In this document: positions 5,805 to 26,387 of the stretch, piece by piece
Layout: every line of letters starts with the position of its first letter
Numbering within the stretch: position 1 is the first letter of the stretch
Source of the DNA: an uncultured Gammaproteobacteria bacterium
GTDB taxonomy: Bacteria > Pseudomonadota > Gammaproteobacteria > JAKDMP01
Length of the DNA stretch: 33,145 nucleotides
Assembly: GCA_964554305.1 (NCBI GenBank)
Contig: CAZKOE010000004.1
Span: 1-33,145 of the forward strand
Direction: 5' to 3'
The notes under the pieces: model-generated
Databases searched by the model: none
Told to the model about the DNA's origin: nothing
What the model saw: the letters and a program-made list of their open reading frames with translations, nothing else
Translations under genes and position numbers: made by a program

Positions 5805-8800
5805 CTATGGACTATGGGCGGGGGCGGCGAGACCGATGAACTCCACCAGGCCGCGATCGTTGGGCGCGTTGCTGGTGGTCCAGATGTTACCGGCCGCGTC
5901 AATCGCGATGCCGCGCGGCCAGGCGAGCCCCGCACCCGCGTAGCCGCCTTGCAGGCTTGTCGCCGGAGCCGGCGGCGAGATCGCGGTCACCGTCGGTGGA
6001 CTGTTACTGTAATCGGCAGCGAATGCGCTGATCGAATGACCGAAGCCGTTCGCAATCCAGGCATCGCCCGCGCTGTCCACGGCGATCGCCATCGGGCCGT
6101 CGAGCCCGGCGCCGGTGACGGAGGTCGACGCCGACGAAGGATCGAACACGGTCACGGAATTCTGGTTGTTATTGGCAAGCCAAGTGCCGCTGACACCGCT
6201 GGAAACGGCGATGCCCACCGGACCGCTCAACGCGGACGCGGAAAAGCAATTAAGGCCGCTTAAGGATAAGGACTGGGCTGCGCAAAAGCTCCCATTTGCA
6301 TGATTCGCAATCAAAACCAAAATACCAACCGGGGATGTCCCCGCGGCCACACCGACGGGGTCGTCGAGATTGACGCTGGTGAGGGAAGTGGGCAGAGGAG
6401 AGCTTCCCGTCGCATTCACCTTGATGAGTGTATGCTCACCGACAGTCCAGACGATGCCGGGGGTGACGCCGGCGGCAAGGGCGGTAGGCGCGCTGGCGGG
6501 AACGCTCGTGAGGAAGCTGCCGTTGTCGGCATCGAATTCCGCGAGGTTGCCGCCCGCGTGGTTCGCCACCCAGATATGGCTCGCGCCATCGGCCACGACG
6601 GCCACGGGCCCGTCGAGATCACCCGACCCAAACGGGCTTCCGGCAACCGGCGTGCCCTGGGCATCGAACTCACTCAACGTGTTGTCCTCGTAGTTCACGA
6701 CCCAGATATTGCCGTTCTTGTCCACGGCAAGCGCGGCGGGGCCCTGCACGCCGAGATGTTGAAGCAGGTTCGCCGCCTTGGGGCTGCCCCAGCCGGTGGG
6801 ATGATCCCAGCCCGTCCCGGCGCAGGAATCCATGGAGCCGCCGGGAGTGCCCGGCAACCAGCCGTTGCAGCCGCTGGTGACGTCGCGGAAGTCCGTTGCG
6901 TAATGCGCGTTGGCGTCGTTGTAGATTTGCTCGTTCGACTGGCCGAGGCGAATCAGGCCCGGTTGGTGGGAAACGCCCACGGCAAACATCCCCGCCAGCA
7001 TCGGCGCGACGGCGCTCGTGCCATAGGCAAGAAAGTAGTAGTAACCCGGCCCGCTTGGTCCGCTGGCGGTGTAGTCCAGCGTCACATAAGGATGGGTGGA
7101 TCCTGCATTGAGCGAGAGATCGGAATTGTTGCGATGGCCGTTTTGCGGCACGCCGTTGCCCACCTGCCAGAACGGCTCGGCGAAAATCTGACTGACCCCG
7201 CCGCCGGTGCCCCAACCGGCCAGAGGGCTATTGAATATCCACGCGGTCTCGCCCCAATAAGTCCCGCTGGTGTCGGCAATGGAAAGCACGGTGCCGTTGG
7301 CCGACGTGATCCACTGGCTGGAAGACGGATAGTCGGCGTTGTTGTTCGTGCCATTGAAGCAATTGTCGCCCGAACCGTGATCGCCAGCCGCCGCAAACAT
7401 CGAAATCCCCTGCGCCGCCGCCTGCAGGAAGATCGGCTCGTCGGTCTGGACGAAATAATGGGGACCTTGAGCATCGCAGACACCCCAACTCGTCGTCATC
7501 ACCTGAGCAAGGTTGTCGGTCACCACCTGGTTGTAGGCGGTCGTGGCCGTGAGAAGGCTCGGGGTGGCAGTGATATACACACGGATCGCCGCGCCTGGCG
7601 CCATCGCCCCGCTCCACTCGACATCGAGTACGGTTTCCGCCTGCCCGGCCGTGGACGCCGGCGGCCCGCCCACCGCGACGGTCGTGATGGCGTGCGCGGG
7701 CAACCCGTAAGCCGACCAGAACAGAGCGGGCCCGTTGAAATTGCCGCCGCCCGTCAGTTTGCTCGCGGCGGTGACGATCGCAATCGTGACGCCGGCACCG
7801 TTGGCCGTGTCGGTCACGCTCGGCCAGTCGTAGGCCTGCTGAATCTGGCAGGGATTGAAGTAGTTGGTGGAATCCGGGATTGGAGTCGAACAGGCACCGG
7901 CCGCCGGGCTCGGAACCGAGCCGCGTGCCGCGAACGCGAGTGGCAGCGACTTGATATGCGAGTGCGGGTGCATCTGCACGCCATGGTTGAGGCCGAGGAT
8001 GCCGGTCAGCCGCCCGGCGACCGCGCGCGGCAGCGTTGGGCTGTCCGTCGTGCTGTAGAACTCGCGCCCGTTCATGCGGTAGTCGTTGACGTGAATGCCG
8101 AGCGCCTGCTCGTATGCACCGGTGCTGGCCTCGGTGTGAATCAACGTGCGGTTGGAGGAGACCTTGAGCACGCGGATACCGCGGCTTTGCAGCCAATCGG
8201 TCACGGTGGCCACGTCGCTCGCGCTCGGCCCGTACAGCGCAGTGAATTGTTGCGGCGTCAGGAAATGCCGATAGGTCGGACTCGCCGGATCGGCAACGTC
8301 ACGCAGGAAGTGCTTGAGCGCCGCGACGTTGCGCAGCTTCAATCCGAAGGTCAGCTTGATCGGCGCGCTTGCAGTATGCGCACCGAGCAGCGTCGCATGG
8401 TTCTCCAGCAAACTCACGCTGCTTTGCGGCGCGAGTCGCAGTTCGGCACCGCTGCCGCTCGGCGCGAAGTCGCTCGCCTCGGGGCCGGTGTAGGCTGCCA
8501 GTCGGGCCTGCGCCTGCGCCGCCGCGACGGCCGGACTCGGGTTGAGACCGCCGCCGGTGAAACGCAGCGCGAGCGTCCAGGCCCGCGGCGCACTGGCAAG
8601 CGCAGGCGCATAAATCGGCGTGGCCGAAGCCCCCAGATTGAAGATCGCCGTGCCCTGGTTGCGGACCTCGCCAACGTCGGCAATATTCTTCATCGCATAC
8701 AACACCAGGCTCGGCGTCGTGCCGCCACTGGGCGTGGCGGCCGAAAAGAGGTTCGTGCAGGCCGCGGCGCCGGCGCTCTGCTGATTGACGCAGAAGGCGG

Positions 8801-9521
8801 CAATGTTCGCGAGTGTGTCCATGCGCCTGAGCGCCTCGCAGTTCACCGGATCGCCGCTACCGGTACAGGAAGCGCCCTCGTCGGTGCCCGGCACACGCGC
8901 GGTCCCGGTCGCCGGATCCACCAGATTGAGGAAGGTCTTCGCCGCCTGCGCCTGGCCGGCACCGGGCCCCGTGATGCCCGCAGCGCCGAAGAAATTCCCC
9001 GCGCTGTAAACCGCTGCAACGGTGGTCAACTCGTTGACGTTGACAAAGCCGGGGAAATTGCAGCCGTCGCCACCTGAGCAGTAAGCGCCCGCGATGGTCA
9101 TCAGATAAATGGCGGCATTGCTGGATACACTCGGATCGCCGCCCAGCGAGTTGCCCCCATGGGCCGTGACATAGATGATCGCCCCGTTCGCGGGTACGGG
9201 CGAGAAACTGGCAATGCTGAACTGCCCGTTGGCGCCCGTGATTGCGGTGCCGATAGTCGCCGCGAGCGTCGCCGTCGCCGCGTCGGGCGCCACGGCGTAA
9301 ACCGTGACGAAGGCGCCCTTGATCGGCTGGCGTCCGCCGAAGACGCTACCGTGAAAAACGGCGGCCTGCGCCACCGGCGCCGACGCGCTCGACTGCTCGC
9401 TCGAGTGCGACGGGCAGCCCGCAAGAAGCCCGGTACCCGCAATCAACGCGGCGCCCGCCGCCATCGTAACGGCCCACGCTACAAAAGAATTCCGTGCTGT
9501 CACAAATGAAAACTTGAACAT
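5805..9521 (-). CDS. Lipoprotein: shared N-domain + inserted S53 (sedolisin) pro/catalytic domains + NHL-like propeller
   Basis: Lipobox LAGC; GSVFGGRQP and VNELTTVA; pro-domain FLTPQQF..YGP; ETVLD, AAAGDHGS, GTSAVAP, WDHPTGWGSP; AVD..GNIW repeats; ends EFIGLAAP. Confidence 0.88.
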   Translation of the reverse strand: MFKFSFVTARNSFVAWAVTMAAGAALIAGTGLLAGCPSHSSEQSSASAPVAQAAVFHGSVFGGRQPIKGAFVTVYAVAPDAATATLAATIGTAITGANGQFSIASFSPVPANGAIIYVTAHGGNSLGGDPSVSSNAAIYLMTIAGAYCSGGDGCNFPGFVNVNELTTVAAVYSAGNFFGAAGITGPGAGQAQAAKTFLNLVDPATGTARVPGTDEGASCTGSGDPVNCEALRRMDTLANIAAFCVNQQSAGAAACTNLFSAATPSGGTTPSLVLYAMKNIADVGEVRNQGTAIFNLGASATPIYAPALASAPRAWTLALRFTGGGLNPSPAVAAAQAQARLAAYTGPEASDFAPSGSGAELRLAPQSSVSLLENHATLLGAHTASAPIKLTFGLKLRNVAALKHFLRDVADPASPTYRHFLTPQQFTALYGPSASDVATVTDWLQSRGIRVLKVSSNRTLIHTEASTGAYEQALGIHVNDYRMNGREFYSTTDSPTLPRAVAGRLTGILGLNHGVQMHPHSHIKSLPLAFAARGSVPSPAAGACSTPIPDSTNYFNPCQIQQAYDWPSVTDTANGAGVTIAIVTAASKLTGGGNFNGPALFWSAYGLPAHAITTVAVGGPPASTAGQAETVLDVEWSGAMAPGAAIRVYITATPSLLTATTAYNQVVTDNLAQVMTTSWGVCDAQGPHYFVQTDEPIFLQAAAQGISMFAAAGDHGSGDNCFNGTNNNADYPSSSQWITSANGTVLSIADTSGTYWGETAWIFNSPLAGWGTGGGVSQIFAEPFWQVGNGVPQNGHRNNSDLSLNAGSTHPYVTLDYTASGPSGPGYYYFLAYGTSAVAPMLAGMFAVGVSHQPGLIRLGQSNEQIYNDANAHYATDFRDVTSGCNGWLPGTPGGSMDSCAGTGWDHPTGWGSPKAANLLQHLGVQGPAALAVDKNGNIWVVNYEDNTLSEFDAQGTPVAGSPFGSGDLDGPVAVVADGASHIWVANHAGGNLAEFDADNGSFLTSVPASAPTALAAGVTPGIVWTVGEHTLIKVNATGSSPLPTSLTSVNLDDPVGVAAGTSPVGILVLIANHANGSFCAAQSLSLSGLNCFSASALSGPVGIAVSSGVSGTWLANNNQNSVTVFDPSSASTSVTGAGLDGPMAIAVDSAGDAWIANGFGHSISAFAADYSNSPPTVTAISPPAPATSLQGGYAGAGLAWPRGIAIDAAGNIWTTSNAPNDRGLVEFIGLAAPAHSP

Positions 9522-9696
9522 GGCTCACCTCCGCCTTTCGGATCAACCCGGTGGGCCGCCACGGAACAGGCTCAAGCCAAGGGGATTTCAGCCGCCTCTT
9601 GCCCGCACCCTGCCCACTTGCATACGCGAACCGTTTTGCGGCCGCGCTCCAAACCGCATCGCCGCACTCGCCAGGACGGGCAGGCGGCATCCGCGA

Positions 9697-9805
9697 GCTT
9701 GGCCGGGGTCGGGCTTGTAATCACCTCCGCTGCCCGCATCCGGGCTGGGGATTCTGGCCGGGGCCTCGACACCGCCTTCCTCCTGATGCGGCGCCGATTT
9801 CAAGC
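9697..9805 (-). ncRNA. Structured 5'-leader RNA motif, copy A (candidate riboswitch/cis-regulator)
   Basis: GCTTGAAA-TCGGCGCCGC/GCGGTGTCGA-GGCCCCGGCCAGAA-TCC..GCCCG/CGGGC..GGA-GGTGATTACAAGCCCGACCCCGGCCAAGC; closing stem extends to 9691/9813. Confidence 0.75.
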
Positions 9806-9814
9806 TTTCGCGGC

Positions 9815-9842
9815 ATTATAAACCAGCTCCCTGAAAACGCAA
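9815..9842 (-). promoter_or_regulatory. Sigma70-like promoter upstream of motif A
   Basis: TTGCGT-16 nt-TATAAT. Confidence 0.7.
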
Positions 9843-9897
9843 GCATCCGCATGACTCCAGGACATAAGGACACAACAGGGAAGGTTGATTAAGCAAC

Positions 9898-9944
9898 GCA
9901 AAAGCCGACGGCAAGGCCCACCCGGGGCGTCGGGTTTCACCGCG
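9898..9944 (-). terminator. Possible intrinsic terminator after 9992..12577
   Basis: CCGACG...CGTCGG stem followed by CTTTTG; imperfect. Confidence 0.4.
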
Positions 9945-9991
9945 TTCAGGCCAGCAACCGGCAATGCGAAACAGAAACAGTTCCCCCGGGA

Positions 9992-12577
9992 TCAGGGGGC
10001 GATCGGAAGGCCTGAAAGCGGCGTTTTCACCGGCGCGGCGATGCCGATGAACTTGACCAGCTTGGGCGGCGCCGAGGAAACCATCCACAGATTGCCGGAG
10101 GCGTCTATCGCGACGCCCTCGGGCAGATTGATGCCAGGATTGCGGTAGCCGTTCGCCGGGCTGAGAGCACTTCCGTCCGCCGTCGCGAGTTCGGTCAGGC
10201 TGTTGCCGTGGTAGTTGCTGATAAAGATATGCCCGGCGCTGTCCACGGCCGCGATGCTGGCCGCATACAATCCCCCGCCCATGAACCCGTCCACCGGCGA
10301 AAGCGGGCAACCGGTATCGCCCGGTCCGGGATGCCTGGGACAGGTCGCGGGGGGCGTGTTGCCGCCCACGAGTTCGGTAACGGCGCTGCCGTTGGCGGGA
10401 TAATGCGGGCCGAAGAAATTCGGTACCCACACATTGCCGTCCGCATCCAGCGCAAGACTATCGGGCTCGTTCAACCCTCCACCAGTGTAACCCGCCGCGG
10501 GTGAAAGCCACGTGGCGGCGCCGGGCGCAAACTCGCTCACGCTGAGACCGGCCTGGTTGGCGATCCACACGTCACCGAGCGCATCCACCGCTATCGATAT
10601 CGGCAACGAAATGCCCCCGCCGCGATACTGAGCGATTTCGGTACCGGAGGCGTCGAGATGAGTGAGCGAACTGTTGCCGAAATCGGCCACCCAGACAGTG
10701 CCGTCTTTCGCGATCGCGACTCCATACGGCCCCGGACTGGTGCCACTGATGGTATAGCCTTGCGCTGCGACGGGCGTGCCATCGGGCGCGAGTTCGGTGA
10801 CGATGGTGCCATTGCCGCCGTTCCAGTTGCCGATCCAAACGTTGCCGTTGCCGTCAATGGCGAGACCGGCGGAGCCACTCAAGCCGCCGCCGGTAAAGCC
10901 CGTGGGCGGCGACAGAGCCGTGCCGTCGGGCGCGAACTTGCTCACCTTGCCGTGCGGCGTAGCGGGCGGATCAGAGGGAATGTAATTGGTCACCCAGACA
11001 TTGCCCTCGGCGTCCACGGCAACGTTGCGCGCCGATCGCATGCCCCCGCCCGTGTAGACAAGGGCGAGGCTCCAGTCGTTCGGCGCCCGCGTCAACGCGG
11101 GCGAATACGCGGTCGCGGGCGCCGGAACCAGTTCGTAAACGCCGGCGCCGGCGCTGCGCAGCGCCGGTTGAGTGGCGATATGGAACAACGCGGCAAAAGT
11201 GTCGGTGACCGAACCGGCCCCGGCGAGCAAACCACTACAAGCCGTCGAGCCGGGGCCGGCGCTGGCCGTGCAGGCAGCGACAAAGTTTGCCAGTGTATTC
11301 AGTTTACGCAGCGCGTCGCAGTTGTCCGGCTCGTCATCGCCGCCGATGCAGAGTACCGTACTGGCGCCGGACACGGCGACCTTGCCGCTCGCGGCATTCA
11401 CCAGGGTAGCGAACGTAACAACGGCGTTGATGAGTCCCGGCCCCGACGCGGGGCCTGAGATATTGACAGTTCCGCCTGAAAGATCGGTGTAGCCCTCAAG
11501 ACTGTAGGCCGTGGCGACGCTCGTCAGCGGGTTGATCGTCACCGTGGAAGAAAAACCGCAGTCGCTGCCGCGGCAGAAACGGCCGGCAATGGTCGCAAGC
11601 CGGATCGCGTCATTGACGCCCGCACCCGCATCGCCGCCGCTCGCCACGGCATACACGACCTGGCCCGTGCCGGGCACCGAGTCAAATCCGACCTTGAATT
11701 TGCCGCTCGCATCCGTTTGTCCGACTCCGAGCAGAGTCGCCGGCGCATGCGGCGTGGGACTGGCCGCCCAGACCTTGACCGTCGCGCCATCCACGGGCCG
11801 ACCTCCACTCACGACCGCGCCCGCCAGCGAATGCGTCGCGGGCGGCGGGAGGGCGACAAAATGTACCGTCGCCGTACTGGGCGATTTCGTGCCGTTGACC
11901 GCGAAGCTCAACGTGATGTCTTCGGCGGCCTCGGATTTGAGGGTGCCCGTCACCCGGCCATTGTCGTTGGTGTAGTGGAGCGTGCAGATCGTGCAGGGAT
12001 CGGCGTTGATGTTCACCTTTGCCGAGCCCGTGAACGGTTGACCCTTGGTGTCCCTGAGAGTCACGGTAACGGCAGCAGCCGCCTTGCCGTCGGCCGTGAC
12101 GCTCGCCGGCACCGCCGTGATGGTGGATTTCGCCGCGCTCACCTGCGGGACGGCGACAAAGTGCACCGTCGCCGTGTTGGGCGATGCCGTGCCGTTGACC
12201 GTGAAGCTCAGCGTGATGTCTCCGGCAACCGCGGATTTGAGGGTGCCCGTCACCTGCCCATTGTCATTGGTATAGTGAAGCGTGCAACTCGCGCAGGGAT
12301 CGGCGCTGATATCCACGCTCGCCGAGCCCGTGAACGGTTGCCCCTTGGTGTCTTTGAGGGTTACGGTAATGGCCGCCGCGGCCCTGCCATCGGCCGTGAC
12401 GCTCGCCGGCACCGCCGTGATGGTGGACTTGGCCGCGCTCACCTGCGGCTTGGGCGGCGGGGGCTTGGGATTACTGCCACCGCCTCCGCCGCAACCGCCC
12501 AGCAAGACGACAAGTATGACCGTACCTGCCAGGGCAGAGAGCGAACGCCCTGTGCGCATGGAAAATCTGTTCTTCAT
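9992..12577 (-). CDS. Lipoprotein: two invasin/Big_1-like Ig domains + shared N-domain + NHL-like propeller
   Basis: Lipobox LGGC, Pro-rich linker, two 100-aa repeats (ADG..AAA.TVTL.D..GQP), GAVVSGGRP, TINPLTSVA, ends KFIGIAAPVKTP. Confidence 0.85.
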   Translation of the reverse strand: MKNRFSMRTGRSLSALAGTVILVVLLGGCGGGGGSNPKPPPPKPQVSAAKSTITAVPASVTADGRAAAAITVTLKDTKGQPFTGSASVDISADPCASCTLHYTNDNGQVTGTLKSAVAGDITLSFTVNGTASPNTATVHFVAVPQVSAAKSTITAVPASVTADGKAAAAVTVTLRDTKGQPFTGSAKVNINADPCTICTLHYTNDNGRVTGTLKSEAAEDITLSFAVNGTKSPSTATVHFVALPPPATHSLAGAVVSGGRPVDGATVKVWAASPTPHAPATLLGVGQTDASGKFKVGFDSVPGTGQVVYAVASGGDAGAGVNDAIRLATIAGRFCRGSDCGFSSTVTINPLTSVATAYSLEGYTDLSGGTVNISGPASGPGLINAVVTFATLVNAASGKVAVSGASTVLCIGGDDEPDNCDALRKLNTLANFVAACTASAGPGSTACSGLLAGAGSVTDTFAALFHIATQPALRSAGAGVYELVPAPATAYSPALTRAPNDWSLALVYTGGGMRSARNVAVDAEGNVWVTNYIPSDPPATPHGKVSKFAPDGTALSPPTGFTGGGLSGSAGLAIDGNGNVWIGNWNGGNGTIVTELAPDGTPVAAQGYTISGTSPGPYGVAIAKDGTVWVADFGNSSLTHLDASGTEIAQYRGGGISLPISIAVDALGDVWIANQAGLSVSEFAPGAATWLSPAAGYTGGGLNEPDSLALDADGNVWVPNFFGPHYPANGSAVTELVGGNTPPATCPRHPGPGDTGCPLSPVDGFMGGGLYAASIAAVDSAGHIFISNYHGNSLTELATADGSALSPANGYRNPGINLPEGVAIDASGNLWMVSSAPPKLVKFIGIAAPVKTPLSGLPIAP
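11849..12448 (-). repeat. 300-bp tandem duplication (two Ig-like domains)
   Basis: Sequence recurs with a 300-bp period (e.g. gggtgcccgtcacc at 11941 and 12241). Confidence 0.9.
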
Positions 12578-12607
12578 GTTGCCGGATACCTCGAATTTGT
12601 GGTTGGG

Positions 12608-15703: not shown

Positions 15704-15726
15704 AACGCCACTGCGTGGTTTCGGCT

Positions 15727-17799: not shown

Positions 17800-17834
17800 A
17801 AAAAAACGGGGTGACGCGAAAATCGCCCACCCCG
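17800..17834 (-). terminator. Intrinsic terminator after the EpsI-like gene
   Basis: CGGGGTG...CACCCCG stem followed by T7. Confidence 0.75.
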
Positions 17835-17905
17835 CATGAAAAACAGCAGCCTCGAAAGGCAACTCCAATAATCTTCGGCAGATTCCATCTGCCTGTTCAT
17901 CAACG

Positions 17906-18574: not shown

Positions 18575-19524
18575 GGTTTCGAGCGCAGCCAGCGCGGAAC
18601 TGAAAAAAGGAACAACGCAGCACAGAAGAACAGCACGCCCCCGATGAGATAATCCGCCATCGTGCCGTGGGCGTCGGTTATGTTGAGTTGCATCGTGCAC
18701 CAATAATAAACCACCACGCCGCACAACCGAACGAGATTGAACACATAGGCGAGGAACACGGCCGCGACGACATAGCCGATCCAACGCGACCAACGCAGAC
18801 GATAGAGATAACCGATGACCAGCGCGAGATAGCCCATCGTCAGCGCGCCGCGCATCCCGTCGCAGCCGGGGGCGATGAACATCCCCAGATGTGGCGTGAA
18901 CATCATGCGCAGCGTGCCTTCGGTGACCGCCACTCCCATGAAGGCGGCGAAGCCTCGTGCCATATGCGCCGCGAAGTACTGCAGCGGCAGGTCAACCAGA
19001 CTGTTGAAGAAGCCCGGCGCCGGGTTCACGGCAATCAGCAGCAGGAGCGGAAACCAGGCTTTGCGCCAGGCCCGTGTTCCCCCGAACAGGAGCACCACAC
19101 CGCTTGTGTAGCCGCTGATCAGAAGACCGCGCGGAATGAAAGCGACTCCCGGAACAGTTTCAAGCGCATGCAAACGCACGGCGAAGAGGTAAGGGGAAGC
19201 ATCAATCAACAAAGCCAGTGCGGCCGTCACTAGAAGCAGCGGCAGTCCCCACCAAGTACCGCCGTGCCCGAAGTCCTCGAGACGCCAGGCGCGGATCGCG
19301 AGCACAAGGCTCGCTACCGGAATTGCCATGCCGATCGAGCGCAGCGGATCGGTGGTCCACGTTCGCCACAGGCTCTCCCACTGCCAAACAAAACAAAGGA
19401 CAAAACCGAGCGCAAGCAGCAGCACAGTGGAAGCAACCGCCAGCCAGGCGCGGCGCCGATCATCCAGCCCCGTGGTGGAAACCTGAGCGGCTTTCGCGAC
19501 GATTCTCGAGCCGGGTACACTCAT
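18559..19524 (-). CDS. xrtJ: Exosortase, J-like (exosortase/archaeosortase family)
   Basis: Multi-TM protein; DLPLQ; catalytic-type Cys in FIAPGCDGMRG; Arg in FNLVRL; adjacent PExPT-CTERM genes suggest subtype J. Confidence 0.8.
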   Translation of the reverse strand: MSVPGSRIVAKAAQVSTTGLDDRRRAWLAVASTVLLLALGFVLCFVWQWESLWRTWTTDPLRSIGMAIPVASLVLAIRAWRLEDFGHGGTWWGLPLLLVTAALALLIDASPYLFAVRLHALETVPGVAFIPRGLLISGYTSGVVLLFGGTRAWRKAWFPLLLLIAVNPAPGFFNSLVDLPLQYFAAHMARGFAAFMGVAVTEGTLRMMFTPHLGMFIAPGCDGMRGALTMGYLALVIGYLYRLRWSRWIGYVVAAVFLAYVFNLVRLCGVVVYYWCTMQLNITDAHGTMADYLIGGVLFFCAALFLFSVPRWLRSKPCTSN

Positions 19525-19650
19525 GACACTGAATTTTACACCGTAATGACAAGAAGAGTGCGGAAACAGATCGGCCGTAAATCTCGCGCCAACACAACTA
19601 TCGAAACTACAACACCCAGCAAACCGGCGCACCGTCGAGCACGAACAGTT

Positions 19651-19683
19651 AAAAAAACCCGACACCCCACGCCGGGCTCGGGT
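19651..19683 (-). terminator. Intrinsic terminator after PExPT gene 19767..19976
   Basis: ACCCGA...TCGGGT stem ending in a T7 run; a second hairpin GCCCCGCCG/CGGCGGGGC lies at ~19714-19742. Confidence 0.7.
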
Positions 19684-19766
19684 ATTCAGCAGCCCTTAAC
19701 GGGGGGCTCACAAGCCCCGCCGCGCAGCTGACACGGCGGGGCCCGATTCCTTGCTGGTTCGATTTC

Positions 19767-19976
19767 TTACTTGTCGTGCTTGCTGCGGCGGCGTCGAACA
19801 ACCGAGCGGACCCACGGTACACCCGCTGCAACCGCACCGATACCGGCAAGAATCCAGGTCGGGTTCTCGGGCGAGTTCACGCAGCCACCGAAGGCGAAGG
19901 CCGTCGAGGCCAAGCAACTCAGACCGACCACGGCCGCTCCGCCGGTAAGCGTCAGCATCAAAGTACGTTTGAACAT
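19767..19976 (-). CDS. PExPT-CTERM (XrtJ-associated TM-motif-TM) small protein, copy 1
   Basis: Signal peptide + GGCVNSPENPT + TM + RRRR tail; GGAGG upstream. Confidence 0.88.
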   Translation of the reverse strand: MFKRTLMLTLTGGAAVVGLSCLASTAFAFGGCVNSPENPTWILAGIGAVAAGVPWVRSVVRRRRSKHDK

Positions 19977-20023
19977 GGTGTTTCCACCTCCTCTGTCAAG
20001 AGAAAAATTAAAAGGTCAATCGC

Positions 20024-20052
20024 AGTATAGGCCACATCGTCAAAGAATGCAA
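20024..20052 (-). promoter_or_regulatory. Sigma70-like promoter of PExPT copy 1
   Basis: TTGCAT-17 nt-TATACT. Confidence 0.7.
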
Positions 20053-20170
20053 GCCTTTTTCGGCCAACCCGTACCCCTCCCGCAACAACGGGAGAAGGAC
20101 CTCACACCGATCGCAGCCGACCGCATCTCACAATCTCGGCCCGGACAGGGCGTTCCGGCCCTTCTTCCCT

Positions 20171-20208
20171 CGGTAGCAGGAGGGGGCGTGACGCCCCTCC
20201 TGCTACCG
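20171..20208. repeat. Near-perfect inverted repeat (~17-bp arms)
   Basis: CGGTAGCAGGAGGGG(G)CG-TGA-CGCCCCTCCTGCTACCG. Confidence 0.8.
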
Positions 20209-20265
20209 GATGCCAGAGCCCTCTCACTGCCAACGGCACAGAAACCGGGCCTCAATCCGCGGCAA

Positions 20266-22260
20266 TTACGGGGTGAACCCGTCGCTGCCGGTCGCGGCCA
20301 CGAGCGGTGTGCGCGTGGGCGCGGCCAGACCAATGAATTCGGTCAGGGAGTCGTTGGACGAATTGCTCACCCACAGGTTGCCGGAGGCATCCACCGCGAT
20401 CGAGAAGAACGCCGGATTGCACAGCCCGCCACCGGTGTAGCCCGTGCTCGGCGAAAGCGCCGCAACCACGGTACCGCTGGCCGGGGCCTTGAACTGGCTG
20501 ACGCTGCCAACGGCGCAGTTGGCGACGGAGGATGCCGTCGTTCCGTAGTTCGAGACCCAGATGTTGCCGTCCGCGTCAATGGCTACGCCATACGGCGAGT
20601 CGAGTCCGCCACCGGTGTAACCGGTGTCGCTGCCAAAAGTGGCCCCGATGCCAAAGAAAACGCCCGGATAGTAGTAGTTGATCGTATTGTTGCCACTACT
20701 CGCGATCCAGAGATTTCCGTCACCCCCAAGGGCTATACCAACGGGATGATCAAGCTGCCCGTTTCCACCCACGCAAGTTGCATAGTAAAAAAAGAACCAA
20801 CCGAACTTGCAGATATAACCGTTATTGTAACTCGTGGCCCACGGAGCCCCGCCAGTAGCGGCGCCTGAGGCGATGCCCATGGCCCCACTGAGGTTGCTGC
20901 TGGTGATCGGGCCGGTAAATATGGAGGTCGAGAACGAATACCCGGTGACGGAGCTATTGCCGAAATTCGCGGTTCCCAGATAAACGCCGTTGCCGCCGAA
21001 GTTTTCGAAACCGATGCCATAAGGCTGGCTGATCCCACTGCCGACCGTCGCAATCGGCGGCACAAAGGTTCCGTTTGCCGTCTGAAACTCGCTGATTGAG
21101 CTGTTGCCGTTGTTTGCGGTCCAGACGTTACCGTTCGGACCCACGGCAATGCCGATGGGTGCGACAAGCCCTGCCGTGCTCGTCGTGAGAATCGGAGCTC
21201 CAATCGGACTGAACTCGCTGATCGAGTTGCCGGCGTTGTTTGCGACCCAGACATTGCCCGCGGCATCAACGGCAATGCCCATGGGAGCATCGAGCCCGTT
21301 ACCCGTGTAGTTAAGCGCGAGGGTCCAGGCATTGGGGGCGGCCTGCAGTCCCGGAGTGTAGATCTTGGTCAGCGGGTTAAGCGCATACAGCGTCGCCCCC
21401 GCATTGCGTACTGCCGAGGCGGTCGCCACGTTGTAGAGCGCCTGGAAGACATTGGCCGGCACGTTGCCGCCAGCCGTCGTCCCGTTGAAGAAACTCGTAC
21501 ACACGCCCGCACCGGCAGACGGGCTGTTCACACAGGCCGCCGCGATGTTGGCCAACGTATTGAGCGTCTCCAGCGCCGCACAGTTCACCGGCTCCCCGCT
21601 GCCCGTGCAGGCCTGCCCACCATCCGTTCCCGGCACATTGCCCGTGCCGTTATCGGAGTTGACCAGATTGGCAAACGTGGCGGCCGCATTGGTCAGCCCA
21701 GCCAGGGCATTCGAATCGTTACCCGCCACCGCCACGTTCACCGACGTACCGGTAATGCTCGTGAACCCACCCATGCTGTAAACCATGGCGGTCGTGGCCA
21801 ACTCGTTGATGTTGACGTTGGTCAGATTGGTGCAGCCGTAGTCCTCACAGACCCCCGCCACGGTCCCCATCAGGATCGCTGTGTTGGAACTGTCGCTGCC
21901 TGAACCGTCGCCTCCGGCCGCCGTCACATAGACAATCGCCCCGGTTCCGGGTACGGGGGCAAAACCCGCAACCGAGAAATTACCGTGTGCGTCGGTCGTG
22001 GCCGTGGCGATCACCGGAGCGGGCATTCCGCCCTGCCCGGCCATGTAGACCGTAATCCGGGAGCCCACGACCGGCTGGCGTCCTCCGAAAACCGTACCCG
22101 AGAACGCCGCACCTCGCGCCACTGGCGCCGCCGACGCACCGGAACTGCTGGAGGAGCCGGCCGGACAACCCGCCAGCAAGCCGAGACCGCCCACCAGCGC
22201 GGTGCCCGCAAAGCCCATGGCGATGCGGGACGCCAAAGAAGAAACCGAAATCTTGAACAT
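20266..22260 (-). CDS. Lipoprotein: shared N-domain + NHL-like propeller
   Basis: LAGC; GTVFGGRQP; NINELATTA; GIAVD..GNVWV repeats; ends EFIGLAAPTRTP...GFTP. Confidence 0.88.
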   Translation of the reverse strand: MFKISVSSLASRIAMGFAGTALVGGLGLLAGCPAGSSSSSGASAAPVARGAAFSGTVFGGRQPVVGSRITVYMAGQGGMPAPVIATATTDAHGNFSVAGFAPVPGTGAIVYVTAAGGDGSGSDSSNTAILMGTVAGVCEDYGCTNLTNVNINELATTAMVYSMGGFTSITGTSVNVAVAGNDSNALAGLTNAAATFANLVNSDNGTGNVPGTDGGQACTGSGEPVNCAALETLNTLANIAAACVNSPSAGAGVCTSFFNGTTAGGNVPANVFQALYNVATASAVRNAGATLYALNPLTKIYTPGLQAAPNAWTLALNYTGNGLDAPMGIAVDAAGNVWVANNAGNSISEFSPIGAPILTTSTAGLVAPIGIAVGPNGNVWTANNGNSSISEFQTANGTFVPPIATVGSGISQPYGIGFENFGGNGVYLGTANFGNSSVTGYSFSTSIFTGPITSSNLSGAMGIASGAATGGAPWATSYNNGYICKFGWFFFYYATCVGGNGQLDHPVGIALGGDGNLWIASSGNNTINYYYPGVFFGIGATFGSDTGYTGGGLDSPYGVAIDADGNIWVSNYGTTASSVANCAVGSVSQFKAPASGTVVAALSPSTGYTGGGLCNPAFFSIAVDASGNLWVSNSSNDSLTEFIGLAAPTRTPLVAATGSDGFTP

Positions 22261-22418
22261 GACTCATACCCTCTGGTCCTGTATCAACCACGCGGGCCGC
22301 TACAGCATCATGTTCAAGTCAGGGTGCACAGCACCGGCTCGAAATATGCCCGACCCGCACGAAGCAGCAGTCGACGCACGACTGCCCCTCAACTCCTCGC
22401 CCCGCGGGGCTTGGAGTT

Positions 22419-22530
22419 GCTTGACCGGGGTCGGGCTTATTACTACCTCCGCCTGCACCACTTCCGTGGGGGCGAATTCTGGCCGGGGCCTCCGCGTCGC
22501 CCGTTCATCACGGCGACGCGGATTTCAAGC
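22419..22530 (-). ncRNA. Structured 5'-leader RNA motif, copy B
   Basis: GCTTGAAA-TCCGCGTCGCC/GGCGACGCGGA-GGCCCCGGCCAGAA-TTCGCC..CCAC(GGAA)GTGG..GGCGGA-GGTAGTAATAAGCCCGACCCCGGTCAAGC. Confidence 0.78.
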
Positions 22531-22539
22531 TTGGGAAAG

Positions 22540-22568
22540 AGTGTAGGCCAGGTCTCTGGAAAAGTCAA
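22540..22568 (-). promoter_or_regulatory. Sigma70-like promoter upstream of motif B
   Basis: TTGACT-17 nt-TACACT. Confidence 0.72.
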
Positions 22569-22701
22569 GCCAAGGCTGGTTGCCGGCAAGCAACACAGAG
22601 AGAGGGGCCCCGCTCCATCAGGTGGAGCGGAGACCCAGCTTACAAGGAAAGCGCCTGGGGCACGGCATTACGTGCTCAACGGAGAGCCCTCCGAGGGAAG
22701 A

Positions 22702-22917
22702 TTACTTTTCGCGTTTGCCGCGGCGGCGTCGGACGACCGAACGAACCCACGGCACGCCCGCCGCAACGGCGCCGATACCCGCGAGAATCCAGGTCGGATT
22801 CTCCGGCGAGTCCACGCAGCCGCCTATGGAGGCAAATGCCGGAGTCACCGCGAACAGGCTCAAGCCCGCCGCGGTCACGCCCGCACCGAGCACCGCAAAC
22901 ATCAGTCGTTTCGTCAT
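22702..22917 (-). CDS. PExPT-CTERM small protein, copy 2
   Basis: Signal peptide + IGGCVDSPENPT; the TM and basic run WILAGIGAVAAGVPWVRSVVRRRR are identical to copy 1. Confidence 0.88.
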   Translation of the reverse strand: MTKRLMFAVLGAGVTAAGLSLFAVTPAFASIGGCVDSPENPTWILAGIGAVAAGVPWVRSVVRRRRGKREK

Positions 22918-22994
22918 GACCTCATACTCCTACTCCAGAGATATTCTGGGTAATTTTCCGCTACGGCTCCCGGTCCTGGCCGCGAGCCCTCGTT

Positions 22995-23023
22995 ACTTTA
23001 CCTTGCCTCTTCGCAAAAAACAA
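22995..23023 (-). promoter_or_regulatory. Possible sigma70-like promoter of PExPT copy 2
   Basis: TTGTTT-17 nt-TAAAGT, with the same GCTTG -35 context as the other island promoters. Confidence 0.5.
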
Positions 23024-23136
23024 GCAGAAGCCCCCCGCGTGACTACCGTTCACCCGAACCCGCCGCACATCCTCCCTTCTCGGTGCAAAAGCGAAGAAAA
23101 GGCGGCGGCGGACACGGGACGAACGTATAGCTCATA

Positions 23137-25056
23137 TCACGGCGTGAAACCATTCACTAGGGCGCTGGCAATCGGCGTGACCGTGGGTGCGGCGATACCG
23201 ATAAACTCGGTGACCGAGTTGGGAGAGCCCTCGTTGGCTACCCAGAGATTACCGCTCGAATCCACGGCGAGTCCCTGTGGGCTGTTCAGCCCGCCGCCAT
23301 CGTAGCTGCCGAGCAGCCCGCCGGTCTGTGTGAACAGGCTGACCGCATTGCCACTCGAATTCGATGCCCAGGCTTCGCCGGCGGCATCCACGGCGATCCC
23401 GTCCTTGGTGCCCGTACCGGTACCGCTCAGGGTCCAGTGGCCGATCGCGGTGCCGGATGAAGTAAATGCGCTCACCGAACCGTCGCCATTCGCAACCCAG
23501 AGATTGTTGGCCGAATCCACGGCGAGTGCCTGAAGGCTGCCGAGACCATTGCCCGACGCGGTCGCCGTTTGGCTGCTGCCGTTGAATTGCACGGCTTCGC
23601 TGCCATCGGCCACCCAAACGTTGTCGTCGGCATCCATGGCGATGGCACGGGGGTCACTCGAAAGCAATCCCTGCAGACTGAGGCTGGTGAGCTGTGTCCC
23701 CGCCGTGCTGAAGGAGGCGAGCGTCGGAAGAAGAAGACTCAGAAGCCCGGAACTGGGCAGCCATACATTCCCCGCCGGACCGACGGCGATGCCTTGCGGA
23801 TTACCGATCTTGAGGAGAATCCCGATTAGCCCCCCCGTGTAAGTGCCAATGTAGCCGCCATCGTTGCTAAACTTGCTGATGGAGCCGCCAAGCAATCCAA
23901 GTACGTCCGCTTTGCTGGTAACCCAGACATCGCCATTCAAGTCCACGGCGATGTCGTGGATGCCGTTAAGGTTGCTGTCGGTGAAATTGCCCAGGGCCGT
24001 GCCATCGTTGCCGAACTTGCTGATGGTATCGTCGGTCGTGTTTGTCAACCATACATTGCCACTGGCGTCGATTGCAAGTCCGGCCGGATTGTTCAGCCCG
24101 TTATCCGTGTAGTTGAGGGCGACGATCCAGGCGTTGGGCGCGGCATCGAGGCCGGGGTTGTAGATCTTCGTCAGCGGGTTGAGCGCAAACAGTGCCGTCC
24201 CCGCACCGCGCACCCCCGGGTCGGTCACCACGTTGTAGAGCGCCTGGAACACATTGCCCGGCACGCTCCCCCCGCTCGTCGTGGTCGCATTGAAAAAACC
24301 CGTGCACGCACCCACGCCCGCGCTCGGACTGTTCACGCAGGTCGCCACTATGTTGGCCAATGTATTGAGTGTCTCCAGCGCCATGCAGTTCACCGGCTCT
24401 CCGCTGCCCGTGCAGGCACTGCCATCATTCGTGCCGGGCACCCGGTCCGTACCGTTCGCGGGATTGACCAGATTGGCAAACGTATTCACCGCATTTGTCA
24501 GGCCCGCCACGGCATTAGTGTCGTTACCCTGCACCGCCACGTTCACCGACGTACCGGTAATGCTCGTGAACCCGCCCATGCTGTAAACCATGGCCGTGGT
24601 CGCCAACTCGTTGACGTTGACGTTGCTCAGATTGGTGCAGCCGTAGTCCTCACAGACCCCCGCCACGGTCCCCATCAGGATCGCTGTGTTGGAACTGCCG
24701 CTGCCTGAACCGTCACCACCGGCCGCCGTGACGTAGACGATCGCTCCCGTCCCCGGCACCGGCGAAAAGCTGGCCACGGTGAAATTGCCACGCGCGTCGG
24801 TCGTGGCCGTGGCGATCACCGGAGCCGGCGTGCCGCCCGTCCCGGCCATGTATACCGTAATCGCCGAACCCACAACCGGTTGACGACCACCGAAGACCGT
24901 GCCCGAAAGCGCCGCACCCCGCGCACCCGGCATCGCCGAAGCACTGGAACTGCTGGAGGAGTTGGCCGGACAACCCGCCAGCAAGGCGAGCCCGGCTACC
25001 AACACGGCGCCGAAAAGTACGGTGGAAACAAACGAAAATTTGTGCTCACTATTCAT
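23137..25056 (-). CDS. Lipoprotein: shared N-domain + NHL-like propeller (close paralog of 20266..22260)
   Basis: Start at ATG 25056 after GGAGG; LAGC; N-terminal half nearly identical to the 20266 gene; ends EFIGIAAPTVTP...GFTP. Confidence 0.88.
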   Translation of the reverse strand: MNSEHKFSFVSTVLFGAVLVAGLALLAGCPANSSSSSSASAMPGARGAALSGTVFGGRQPVVGSAITVYMAGTGGTPAPVIATATTDARGNFTVASFSPVPGTGAIVYVTAAGGDGSGSGSSNTAILMGTVAGVCEDYGCTNLSNVNVNELATTAMVYSMGGFTSITGTSVNVAVQGNDTNAVAGLTNAVNTFANLVNPANGTDRVPGTNDGSACTGSGEPVNCMALETLNTLANIVATCVNSPSAGVGACTGFFNATTTSGGSVPGNVFQALYNVVTDPGVRGAGTALFALNPLTKIYNPGLDAAPNAWIVALNYTDNGLNNPAGLAIDASGNVWLTNTTDDTISKFGNDGTALGNFTDSNLNGIHDIAVDLNGDVWVTSKADVLGLLGGSISKFSNDGGYIGTYTGGLIGILLKIGNPQGIAVGPAGNVWLPSSGLLSLLLPTLASFSTAGTQLTSLSLQGLLSSDPRAIAMDADDNVWVADGSEAVQFNGSSQTATASGNGLGSLQALAVDSANNLWVANGDGSVSAFTSSGTAIGHWTLSGTGTGTKDGIAVDAAGEAWASNSSGNAVSLFTQTGGLLGSYDGGGLNSPQGLAVDSSGNLWVANEGSPNSVTEFIGIAAPTVTPIASALVNGFTP

Positions 25057-25185
25057 AATGTCAACCTCCATGCCTCAATCAATTCCCGCGCGATCGAGAA
25101 CGACCGTCGACGGCCAAATACCCCCATCTCGCCTGCCTGGCAAGACGAGAGGCTACTTGATTGCAGTCTAGACGGAAATGAAAAA

Positions 25186-25230
25186 ATGAGGTAATCAAGA
25201 CGTCTCATGAGGATCATCCCGACGTCTCAT
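25186..25230 (-). promoter_or_regulatory. Tandem operator-like repeats, candidate AraC-family binding sites
   Basis: ATGAGACGTC twice with a 22-bp period (25199-25208, 25221-25230), each followed by CCTCAT; possible -10 TAGACT at 25165-25170 with a poor -35. Confidence 0.55.
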
Positions 25231-25297
25231 TCACGCGGTCCTGTCATCGGCACGAACCGGAAAACCCGGCACGGGCCCTGCCCCCGCCGATCTCGGT

Positions 25298-26167
25298 TTA
25301 TTGGATCGCGAGACTCCGCGCCTCGGAAGGCGTCATGTGATAGCGTGCGCGAAAACTGCGGCTCAGATTGGGACTGTCGTACAGTCCGCAGCTCGCCGCC
25401 AGTTCACCAATCGCCGCATCGGAGGAAGCCGTTTCCAGTAACAAACGCAGCCGGTCCAGACGTTCGTTGCGAATGTAGTTCGCAACGGTCAACCCGTGCT
25501 CGGAAAAGACCCGATACAGCGTCGCGCGCGAACAGCCGAGTGTGCGTGCGATCCAGGCGGAACCGAGATCGGGGTCGGCGAGATTGCTCTCGATGCAGTA
25601 GCAGGCTTGAATAAAAAAATCCTCACGATGAGTCCGCCCGCTCCGCGGTACAACCTCCGTCCAGGCGTCACCCATGGCGGAAAGCGCCGCTCTCACGACG
25701 CCGGTTGCGACCGCCTCGACAGCCAGCAACGAGGCGGCCCTTTCCCCCTCGTCTAGGTTGTCGAAGACGGTGTGAAGCGCTTCCAGTTCATCGCGGAGCA
25801 TCGCCGTCAGGGTGCCGGCGTGGATTGCCTTCGATGCCGCGCCGGCGGACAGCGGAGTCACCGATTCGGGTAAAAACAATCGCCGCGGCAAAATCATTTC
25901 GATAATTTTCGCGGCATCGGAGGCAATCCGGGCAGGAATCGCCCTGTCGCACAGATAGAAATCCTGCGGTCGGACACGGAAGGGTTCGCCACCCAGTTGT
26001 TGGTAGGTGATGCTTCCGCACTTGACATAATTGAGGGCAAGCTTTTTTTCATCGGCACCCGCGAAGGAAAACATCCGGAGGACGTGACCGGATTCCGGCG
26101 TAGACCCTGCCAAACAGCTTTCCGACTTGAAACCCGGCTTCTTCTGTTTTGTACCCTGTCTGTACAT
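25298..26167 (-). CDS. AraC-family transcriptional regulator
   Basis: C-terminal double HTH: IARTLGCSRATLYRVF...IRNERL...IGELAASCGLYDSPNLSRSFRARYHMTP. Confidence 0.9.
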   Translation of the reverse strand: MYRQGTKQKKPGFKSESCLAGSTPESGHVLRMFSFAGADEKKLALNYVKCGSITYQQLGGEPFRVRPQDFYLCDRAIPARIASDAAKIIEMILPRRLFLPESVTPLSAGAASKAIHAGTLTAMLRDELEALHTVFDNLDEGERAASLLAVEAVATGVVRAALSAMGDAWTEVVPRSGRTHREDFFIQACYCIESNLADPDLGSAWIARTLGCSRATLYRVFSEHGLTVANYIRNERLDRLRLLLETASSDAAIGELAASCGLYDSPNLSRSFRARYHMTPSEARSLAIQ

Positions 26168-26236
26168 GTTACCGCCACCCTGTCGGACCCGGACGGACGG
26201 TTGCCACGACCAAGCCTCCCCACGGGAACTTGGCTG

Positions 26237-26350
26237 GCTTGACCGGGGCCGGGCTTATAGCTACCTCCGCTTGCCCGCATGAAGCAGGTGCGAATTCTGA
26301 CCGGTATATCCATACTGAACCCTTCACTACAGGCAGTACGGATCTCAAGC
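26237..26350 (-). ncRNA. Structured 5'-leader RNA motif, copy C
   Basis: GCTTGAGA-TCCGTACTG/CAGTATGGA-TATACCGGTCAGAA-TTCGC..CCTGC/GCGGG..GCGGA-GGTAGCTATAAGCCCGGCCCCGGTCAAGC. Confidence 0.75.
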
Positions 26351-26358
26351 TCATTGAC

Positions 26359-26387
26359 AATATAGGCCAATCTTGCCAAAAAATCAA
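26359..26387 (-). promoter_or_regulatory. Sigma70-like promoter upstream of motif C / araC-like gene
   Basis: TTGATT-17 nt-TATATT. Confidence 0.72.

Follow-up and report, generated by a model that had tools for sequence, protein, structure and literature searches.

The 33,145-nt stretch of DNA analysed here (the window) is contig C4 (CAZKOE010000004.1) of a 2.7-Mb, 330-contig genome bin of an uncultured gammaproteobacterium (G000, 90.7% complete), and it carries an island built around exosortase J (XrtJ). The flanks of the island are pyrG (3900–5738, minus strand; CTP synthase, 843 bits) and mfd (26501–30154, plus strand). The interval between them holds 11 genes, every one on the minus strand: six large lipoproteins (LP1–LP6), xrtJ, a second reading frame behind it (ORF2), two PExPT-CTERM mini-proteins and an araC regulator. 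This gene content bears out the initial annotation, made from the sequence alone, which had described 11 co-oriented genes from pyrG to mfd. All six lipoproteins share a domain that we call the N-domain. What is new here is an exosortase system that is consistently tied to a large lipoprotein family for which no model exists, and whose signal protein carries no cargo. The genes and other features of the island, including three copies of a leader RNA recognised by our covariance model R1, are as follows.

5805–9521, minus strand: LP1, with N-domain (E 2e-114), pro-kumamolisin/sedolisin region, NHL and FIGLAAP tail.
9695–9798, minus strand: leader RNA copy 3 (R1 88.1 bits), 174 nt 5' of the LP1 start, with -35/-10-like hexamers ahead.
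9992–12577, minus strand: LP2, with lipobox, two Big_1/Invasin_D3 domains, N-domain, NHL propeller and FIGIAAP tail.
12608–15703, minus strand: LP3, with lipobox, N-domain (E 3e-107) and seven-bladed lactonase-type propeller; no FIGLAAP tail.
15727–17868, minus strand: LP4, with lipobox, N-domain (E 1e-125), NHL propeller and FIGLAAP tail.
17906–18574, minus strand: ORF2 (222 aa), predicted detached C-terminal domain of XrtJ, with one transmembrane helix and a periplasmic domain.
18559–19527, minus strand: xrtJ (TIGR04199), short form, the predicted catalytic multi-pass membrane module alone.
19655–19679, minus strand: terminator-like hairpin (11 pairs and a T run) between PExPT-1 and xrtJ.
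19767–19976, minus strand: PExPT-1, 69 aa (TIGR04200, 51.0 bits).
20266–22260, minus strand: LP5, with lipobox, N-domain, NHL propeller and FIGLAAP tail.
22417–22523, minus strand: leader RNA copy 2 (R1 106.3 bits), 157 nt 5' of LP5, with a promoter-like site at 22540–22568.
22702–22917, minus strand: PExPT-2, 71 aa (TIGR04200, 53.0 bits).
23137–25071, minus strand: LP6, with lipobox, N-domain, NHL propeller and FIGIAAP tail.
25298–26167, minus strand: araC, AraC-family regulator (HTH_18, 57.9 bits).
26235–26343, minus strand: leader RNA copy 1 (R1 98.7 bits), 68 nt 5' of araC, with a promoter-like site at 26359–26387.

The xrtJ product scores 285.4 bits against the exosortase J model TIGR04199 (E 9.8e-85, cut-off 200; 288.8 bits in the genome-wide search), 117.1 bits against the Pfam family Exosortase_EpsH and 43.5 bits against the superfamily signature TIGR04178 (cut-off 23), and it is the sole exosortase-family match across this assembly. 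In a 19-sequence XrtJ alignment C221 and R266 are invariant and H187 is present in at least 90% of the rows; Cys-Arg-His is the inferred catalytic set of exosortases according to the accessible part of the Haft preprint (10.1101/2023.06.07.544157). The protein covers positions 9–275 alone of the 522 in the TIGR04199 profile, and the full-length single-polypeptide architecture is thus absent. The GTG start of ORF2 overlaps the xrtJ stop by 16 nt. ORF2 was weakly aligned by BLASTP (E 3e-6) to residues 363–475 of a 550-aa XrtJ, and in phmmer searches it matched a separate downstream open reading frame (ORF) at every other short-form XrtJ locus and also, in nine long XrtJ proteins, the C-terminal half; the layout of xrtJ with an overlapping second frame recurs in the relative L011. 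Since the same split is found at other short-form loci, we take it for a variant of this lineage rather than a frameshift from sequencing. The nearest homologues of XrtJ (57–72% identity) are 304–320 aa long, and those with a named source bear the names of gammaproteobacterial metagenome-assembled genomes (MAGs); the remoter ones (44–53% identity) are about 550 aa long and some bear Acidobacteriota names. XrtJ is predicted to be a multi-pass membrane cysteine transpeptidase-like enzyme, encoded here in two genes, the catalytic xrtJ and ORF2 for the periplasmic C-terminal domain. The hairpin ahead of xrtJ could hold its expression under the level of LP5 and the mini-protein; the count of terminator-like sites across the region is no higher than chance.

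Both mini-proteins exceed the TIGR04200 cut-off of 40 bits. An alignment of 43 PExPT sequences has an invariant M1 and an invariant G-C-x-x-S-P-E-x-P-T-x-x-L, preceded by a signal peptide and followed by a hydrophobic helix and then an Arg/Lys cluster; PExPT-1 itself consists of a signal peptide, G-C-V-N-S-P-E-N-P-T, a transmembrane helix and RRRR (alignment A8). Here the signal peptide terminates in AFA, and in Acidobacteriaceae its usual end is LHA-Q or LRA-Q. From the likely signal-peptidase site to S-P-E-x-P-T there are about 3–12 residues, the invariant Gly-Cys included. By sequence the mini-proteins bear a complete exosortase-type sorting signal and hardly any passenger. The PExPT-1 gene lies 240 nt upstream of xrtJ, and the genome as a whole holds eight PExPT genes, whose products are nearly identical in sequence, together with 23 matches to the N-domain (20 at E≤1e-29). 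In six of the eight cases (C4 twice, C133, C51, C110 and C167) the PExPT gene stands directly 3' of an N-domain lipoprotein gene; the copies on C228 and C191 do not. The same pairing is repeated in two relatives (G001:C98 and G002:C2).

Each of the six large proteins begins with a lipobox-like pattern, LLAGC in LP1, LP5 and LP6, LLGGC in LP2 and ALGGC in LP3 and LP4 (the likely start of LP4 is the ATG at 17757). These are pattern matches on the translations, and a similar pattern is found in 56 of 71 N-domain relatives. Behind the N-domain the heads differ. NHL is matched in LP1 (27.8 bits), LP2 (46.2), LP4 (63.1), LP5 (61.8) and LP6 (57.4; cut-off 20), LP3 matches Lactonase PF10282 (233.6 bits, cut-off 21.7), and the propeller heads give Vgb_lyase, SGL and NHL matches in Pfam. 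LP1 in addition matches Pro-kuma_activ PF09286 (107.7 bits), and its residues 39–483 match pro-kumamolisin 1t1e (E 3.8e-29); by family membership it is a predicted sedolisin (S53) protease. Near the C-terminus of five of the six proteins, LP3 being the exception, stands FIG[LI]AAP followed by 6–17 residues. Among N-domain ORFs at XrtJ loci the tail motif [FILVM][IVLF]-G-x-[AGS]-x-P occurs in 59 of 71, and the consensus at the extreme C-terminus reads EF[IV]G[LIV]A[AT]PVKTP...P. A hydrophobic and basic C-terminal tail is absent from all six translations, and PEP-CTERM models give no match to these proteins at E≤0.01. The AF2 model of LP5 (predicted local distance difference test score, pLDDT, 85; predicted template-modelling score, pTM, 0.91) places the closing strand and the ten residues after it (601–610) at a pLDDT of about 90, the final 13 residues not being confident. 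In alignment A7 a conserved Cys pair at columns 586 and 588, one column apart and CC in the consensus, lies in one propeller blade and is present in most acidobacterial N-domain/NHL proteins (38–39 of 55); LP5 holds just one of the two.

The N-domain is about 260–270 aa long in LP1–LP6, with 36–54% identity to that of LP4 and 42 invariant columns over 272 positions. The protein features given in the initial annotation hold up well: the shared motifs of this domain are among the invariant columns, the L-[AG]-G-C lipobox can be read in the translations of all six proteins, the FIG[LI]AAP C-terminus in five of them, and the lack of a PEP-CTERM tail is confirmed both by the translations and by the model search. 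The description of LP2 needs one correction, as its lipobox stands at the extreme N-terminal end, separated from the N-domain by two Big_1/Invasin_D3 domains. No known family accounts for the domain. The best Pfam E-values for the six N-domains are 0.035–0.35, which is not significant, NCBIfam gives nothing for this region at E≤0.01, Pfam gives nothing at 1e-6 for the same region of 52 relatives chosen for length variety, and no solved structure was detected by sequence. The domain itself is common. Among representatives of clusters made at 50% identity, a profile of 59 sequences matches 5,229 at E≤0.001, of which 2,780 reach E≤1e-30, and in the protein atlas it falls in unnamed clusters from Acidobacteriota and Pseudomonadota. 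In relatives it usually starts at about residue 35–70, and the 52 sampled proteins comprise 28 with an NHL-type propeller, 11 with only Ig-like, glycosidase or beta-helix domains and 13 without a Pfam match.

An AlphaFold model of the N-domain (pLDDT 92, pTM 0.92) has a beta-sandwich in residues 1–105, followed by a helical subdomain. Structure searches recover transthyretin-like sandwiches alone, and the helical half found no convincing match in these searches of the N-domain model, in which that half was not searched alone. The best match is the non-heme domain of the lipoprotein cytochrome PgcA (PDB 9i0d/9i0e; Foldseek E 6.6e-4; VIA Z 7.0, root-mean-square deviation 2.6 Å, 110 aligned, 21% identity). 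The score is a middling one, owed for the most part to the transthyretin-like sandwich, which is a common fold; sequence comparison detected no relationship, and we take the modelled likeness as a lead and not as a relationship. Among 55 sequences C97 is present in 54, with C62 (47/55) or C102 (6/55) as its partner, and C202 and C213 are invariant. We had considered a conserved unpaired cysteine that might meet the Cys of the PExPT motif, and rejected the idea because all N-domain cysteines appear to be paired. As modelled, the N-domain is a module-specific combination of a transthyretin-like sandwich and a disulfide-bonded helical subdomain.

One line of evidence for a link between these components is their genomic neighbourhood. 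Contigs of one genome per species contained 370 XrtJ relatives, from which the best 80 loci were kept with up to 10 kb on each side; they are mostly from Acidobacteriaceae, a few being labelled Gammaproteobacteria, Rhodanobacteraceae, Kiritimatiellae, 'Deltaproteobacteria', Binataceae or Verrucomicrobiae. A profile of the six window N-domains finds an N-domain ORF in the flanks of 62 of the 80, and a PExPT gene is found in 56 of them by strict pattern, with three more added by phmmer. Seventy-eight loci were parsed for adjacency, and in 61 the sequence extended 3 kb or more to either side of xrtJ. Of these 61, 50 have an N-domain whose start is no more than 1.5 kb away from xrtJ; it runs in the same direction as xrtJ in 49 of them (31 downstream and 18 upstream), and the remaining one is upstream on the opposite strand. 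Two gene orders, PExPT-xrtJ-LP and PExPT-LP-xrtJ, track two large acidobacterial XrtJ clades, and adjacency is kept in both; the split-form loci L024 and L027 read PExPT-xrtJ-ORF2, then an LP3-like protein of lactonase type and an LP2/4-like protein of NHL type. In an all-against-all clustering of neighbouring ORFs the N-domain family occurs in 63 of the 80 loci and the next family, glucokinase, in 33; the other neighbours (glucokinase, other pentose-phosphate genes, ComEC and an outer-membrane barrel) reach at most 33 of 80 and do so in Acidobacteriaceae only. Five complete genomes of 4.0–6.1 Mb hold 3, 18, 4, 6 and 4 copies of the N-domain, and since these numbers are low, chance adjacency to xrtJ is unlikely. 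The same genomes carry 1, 1 (plus one match under the cut-off), 1, 2 and 1 PExPT genes, counts by which we reject a general rule of one PExPT gene per lipoprotein gene. At the loci L030–L101, genes for glucokinase, 6-phosphogluconolactonase, glucose-6-phosphate dehydrogenase, 6-phosphogluconate dehydrogenase and ribose-5-phosphate isomerase lie upstream of xrtJ in 11–33 of the 80, which is probably lineage synteny.

Co-occurrence points the same way. In 151 genomes from the class of one acidobacterial carrier (N-domain at E≤1e-10, XrtJ above its cut-off; the unpublished G132 and G140 both count as negatives), XrtJ is present in 10 and the N-domain in 13, that is, in all 10 of the XrtJ-positive genomes and in 3 of the 141 XrtJ-negative ones. 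Within a set of 41 relatives of our genome XrtJ occurs in G000, G002 and G005, and strong N-domain matches occur in these three and in G001, the same four genomes that carry PExPT. No xrtJ was detected in G001; its PExPT gene, beside an N-domain gene, lies 30 bases from a contig end, and xrtJ may therefore be unassembled there. Relatives are not independent samples, and such counts overstate the statistics. The initial annotation had proposed a functional link between XrtJ and the lipoprotein family, to be examined by profile searches, gene neighbourhoods and phylogenetic profiling. The profile searches gave scores above the curated cut-offs of TIGR04199 and TIGR04200 and NHL matches in Pfam, and the 62 of 80 loci and the ten in ten against three in 141 agree with the link. 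As far as comparative genomics reaches, neighbourhood, co-occurrence and the pairs within the genome support the link.

The island is variable cargo at its site, because pyrG and mfd adjoin in three relatives: in G001, of the same genus, and in G002 and G003 the two genes are adjacent and divergent, about 180–250 bp apart, and the segment between them here measures 20.6 kb. In G005 an XrtJ cassette lies beside pyrG; a different contig carries mfd, with an N-domain gene as its neighbour. The pyrG and mfd of the window are 85% and 68% identical to their counterparts in G001, and G+C shows no sharp break (0.58–0.68 in the island, 0.62–0.70 in the flanks). A quick, unrooted (midpoint-drawn) tree of 79 XrtJ catalytic regions, from which L024 and L026 had been dropped by a motif filter, groups the window copy with three from gammaproteobacterial MAGs (support of 99 in the Shimodaira–Hasegawa-like approximate likelihood-ratio test, SH-aLRT). 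The short, split forms make up a clade of seven rows, separated (99) from 72 long forms, 70 of which are from Acidobacteriota. Two XrtJ sequences with other labels, L037 (Rhodanobacteraceae) and L075 (Verrucomicrobiae), are nested in the long-form clade of the Acidobacteriaceae, either by recent transfer or as mis-binned contigs. XrtJ is present in 3 of 9 genomes of the family and in 0 of 32 from other families of the class, a patchy spread that fits horizontal transfer. The gammaproteobacterial host proposed at the outset agrees with the Gammaproteobacteria MAG names carried by the nearest XrtJ homologues and loci. The proposal that the island was horizontally acquired stands for the insertion, seen against the adjoining pyrG and mfd of G001–G003, and goes unsupported for a donor among the Acidobacteria, the short forms being a separate clade in an unrooted tree. 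The whole or part of positions 18500–22700 was present in four soil-metagenome DNA runs of one study, with no RNA run listed.

We consider it quite likely that XrtJ, the PExPT mini-protein and the N-domain lipoproteins form one functional module, and overall the best explanation, a likely one, is a conserved three-part module of the envelope. The lipoproteins, to read from their sequences, would be exported and lipid-anchored by the ordinary Sec/lipoprotein route. By analogy with archaeosortases and sortases, XrtJ would cleave the mini-protein at PExPT and hand a short Cys-bearing stub to an acceptor; we propose this transfer step because archaeosortase A couples cleavage to the attachment of an anchor. 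The stub would then meet the N-domain, as gene linkage suggests, and XrtJ would thereby modify or position the lipoprotein enzymes at the envelope. Across the family the heads vary (NHL, lactonase-type, sedolisin) and the N-domain is constant. That the N-domain is the acceptor or the docking partner of the stub is a tentative suggestion whose sole basis is gene linkage. We are more doubtful still that XrtJ is a trans-acting tagging enzyme, which would move the stub onto the N-domain, or to it as a lipid-linked peptide. Were this true, sorting signal and cargo would be encoded by different genes, and we know of no sortase-like system in which they are. A complex prediction for LP5 (A7) with residues 26–69 of PExPT-1 (A8), run without controls, gave a score of 0.00, which speaks neither for nor against binding.

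Several observations weigh against the three-part module. The lipoproteins carry every signal that export and anchoring call for and do not depend on a sortase for their way to the envelope; the N-domain cysteines, all seemingly paired, offer no free thiol to the invariant Cys of the mini-protein; and the FIGLAAP tail is unlikely to be a free, flexible sorting signal, given the pLDDT of about 90 in the LP5 model, on the strength of which we read the motif as part of the fold of this propeller subfamily and not as a free signal. Eleven of the 61 evaluable loci lack an adjacent N-domain, nine of them having none within 10 kb, and the neighbourhood counts are not independent, because most of the 80 loci are from Acidobacteriaceae. 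N-domain paralogues outnumber PExPT genes (23 against 8 here, and likewise in the five complete genomes). Three XrtJ-negative genomes of the 141 (G098, G111 and G146) carry the N-domain, and weak N-domain matches occur in G007 and G016, which have neither XrtJ nor PExPT. The searchable literature offered no biochemical datum on XrtJ.

Some of these points would be met if the components were linked by use and not by chemistry, XrtJ acting on the mini-protein alone (turning it, for example, into a small lipid-anchored or released peptide) and the lipoproteins being independent envelope enzymes, co-regulated because the process that they serve is the same. The signal and lipobox that each lipoprotein bears, the many N-domain paralogues far from xrtJ and PExPT and the genomes with an N-domain and no XrtJ are all in its favour. 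We nevertheless hold it rather unlikely, as the adjacency survives differing gene orders and clades with several phylum labels, no other neighbour family keeps such adjacency, and the co-occurrence is 10 of 10 against 3 of 141. Peptide maturation is a further idea, in which the mini-protein would be the precursor of a small Cys-peptide, similar to a signal or a cofactor, that XrtJ releases and the propellers modify or sense. The very short mature stub with its invariant G-C-x-x-S-P-E-x-P-T would suit such a role, as would heads from propeller classes (Vgb_lyase, SGL, NHL) among whose members are lyases of small molecules and of peptides, and an AraC regulator in the island. It is nonetheless improbable, since the heads vary from NHL to lactonase-type and sedolisin and the non-catalytic N-domain alone is constant, the PExPT paralogues are near-identical, with no diversification of the kind expected of ligand and receptor, and AraC is not conserved with XrtJ.

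It is less probable again, and very much so, that the lipoproteins are the true substrates of XrtJ through their EF[IV]G[LIV]A[AT]PxxTP...P tail, with the mini-protein as a subunit or regulator of the enzyme. In its favour, the tail is kept at the C-terminal end of 59 of the 71 N-domain ORFs at XrtJ loci, but this tail has neither a transmembrane helix nor a basic cluster, its first part is ordered in the model, members of the LP3 type lack it and yet stay in the cassette, and the mini-protein already has the full tripartite architecture of a sorting signal. An acidobacterial fragment misjoined into a gammaproteobacterial bin might be suspected in a MAG of 330 contigs, XrtJ being mainly acidobacterial. 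The chance of such an assembly or binning artefact is close to nil: pyrG and mfd, 85% and 68% identical to those of G001, flank the island on the same contig, XrtJ clusters with the Gammaproteobacteria MAG copies (SH-aLRT 99), and the G005 cassette likewise stands beside pyrG. The conserved three-part module is the reading that we prefer.

The regulatory elements of the island stand apart from this module. The product of araC is a member of its family by its HTH_18 match and by HTH_AraC (43.2 bits). No AraC homologue was found at E≤1e-5 in 82 XrtJ loci, and we reject araC as a conserved member of the module for this reason. The repeated RNA element proposed in the initial annotation is real: an 87-nt repeat at 22400–22486 and 26218–26304 (74% identical) has a third copy at 9695–9798, and the three copies in the window lie 5' of araC, LP5 and LP1. 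In this genome the covariance model R1 finds ten full copies and one that is cut off, and in G001 it finds two. The motif was not found in 39 relatives outside the genus (under stricter filters, with 89 candidates scored per genome) or in 88 loci of other XrtJ or N-domain genomes, where one match at E 0.56 is at chance level; Rfam gives no match at the gathering score in the whole window and none at E≤1 in 9400–26600. Because all ten full copies follow -35/-10-like hexamers at a fixed distance, with a conserved GCTTGAA at a fixed distance upstream, we interpret the element as a promoter with its 5' leader; a generic promoter scan had picked up two of these promoters (22540–22568 and 26359–26387). 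The wider claim of one system stood in part, namely for XrtJ, PExPT and the lipoproteins; AraC and the RNA motif are local additions.

We propose four helices for the leader. In this fold 86.5% of cells are paired, against 33–48% when the partners are slid, and both partners have changed in seven pairs, of which the first hairpin holds six; the inner helices scarcely vary. Single-sequence folding compared with shuffles gave z -5.87 for the LP5 leader and z -0.61 for the araC leader, the latter no better than shuffles. In the LP5 leader, at 22300–22420 (minus strand) downstream of leader copy 2, the conserved GCCCGACCC can pair with a downstream GGGUCGGGC, which is followed by AUAUUU; similar downstream words occur in two C121 copies, and the pairing is not available in all copies. 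This hints at an alternative, attenuator-like fold for the LP5 leader. Two small ORFs with similar peptides (72 and 53 aa; 26169–26387 and 22300–22461, minus strand) are shadows of the leader RNA and probably not genes.

Elsewhere in the genome leader copies precede N-domain genes on C121, C183, C180 and C280. The two on C183 (1043–1162 and 4633–4752), ahead of two N-domain genes, are identical and have identical flanks, which points to a tandem duplication of very recent date or to a repeat in the assembly. Outside the XrtJ island the motif is also found at a pilus operon here and at a SerB-like gene in the congener. The copy at C3:8373–8487 (minus strand) precedes a pilin-like ORF (C3:7694–8275) that we read as of the spore-coat-U type, behind which the ORFs C3:6919–7710 and C3:4536–7016 are chaperone-like and usher-like, all three as judged from the translations. 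Because this copy precedes genes resembling a pilus operon, the leader regulon seems to reach beyond the lipoprotein family. In G001 one copy (L117 on C91, motif 1501–1607, minus strand) stands some 220 nt 5' of a HAD/SerB-like gene, and the other (L115) has no clear gene downstream. We regard the leader as a candidate for a new cis-regulatory RNA that belongs to one genus, and this genus-specific promoter-leader, set before many of the roughly 23 lipoprotein copies, araC and the pilus operon, is a local regulatory layer outside the module.

XrtJ and PExPT-CTERM appear to be described solely in family databases. In the searchable literature, the comments in NCBIfam not being covered, we found no mention of XrtJ, 'exosortase J' or PExPT-CTERM and no stated link to a lipoprotein family. 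Both models of that TIGR04199/TIGR04200 system are matched here and the mini-protein gene stands in its place just upstream of xrtJ, but the enzyme is split into two overlapping genes and a single genome holds eight mini-protein genes. XrtA/EpsH with PEP-CTERM has the same enzyme superfamily and the same tripartite signal of motif, transmembrane helix and basic cluster as XrtJ/PExPT. That system, in the accessible parts of the sources (PMC1569441; 10.1101/2023.06.07.544157), serves many large signal-bearing passengers and is found at exopolysaccharide loci. In contrast, the signal protein here is nearly without a passenger and its conserved neighbour is a lipoprotein and not a set of polysaccharide genes; a search of this genome for PEP-CTERM, which had no positive control, gave no match.

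Archaeosortase A, which acts on PGF-CTERM, is homologous to XrtJ as an enzyme class; the accessible part of the preprint describes cleavage coupled to a new anchor and an inferred Cys-Arg-His set (10.1101/2023.06.07.544157). Its substrate, as far as that source goes, is large, an S-layer glycoprotein to which a lipid becomes attached, whereas XrtJ has no known acceptor. MYXO-CTERM resembles PExPT in that, in the portion of the literature at hand, its tripartite C-terminal signal has an invariant Cys within the motif or beside it. According to the same portion, however, the enzymes that go with MYXO-CTERM signals are glutamic proteases of the CPBP/Rce1 type, and the proteins that bear these signals are real passengers, while the enzyme here is an exosortase and the PExPT Cys stands two residues ahead of S-P-E. 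The locus is thus distinguished by its split enzyme, its strongly expanded lipoprotein family (about 23 members) and its genus-specific leader RNA.

Exosortases are widespread, and little is known of their chemistry or their acceptors. Among them XrtJ stands at the extreme, since with a nearly passenger-less target the sorting of cargo fails as an explanation, and the N-domain propeller lipoproteins, as a tightly linked third component, offer a concrete candidate for the partner or acceptor. The natural split of XrtJ into a catalytic and a periplasmic part should be handy for dissecting the enzyme, and a test of the module is feasible in cultivable Acidobacteriaceae such as Edaphobacter aggregans DSM 19364 and Tunturiibacter, which carry the cassette (loci L069, L038 and L060). 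Within one genus the promoter-leader element, as a candidate regulatory RNA, ties surface-protein genes together. The N-domain family is abundant in the Acidobacteriaceae of soil, where envelope enzymes of this kind may matter for the turnover of polymers.

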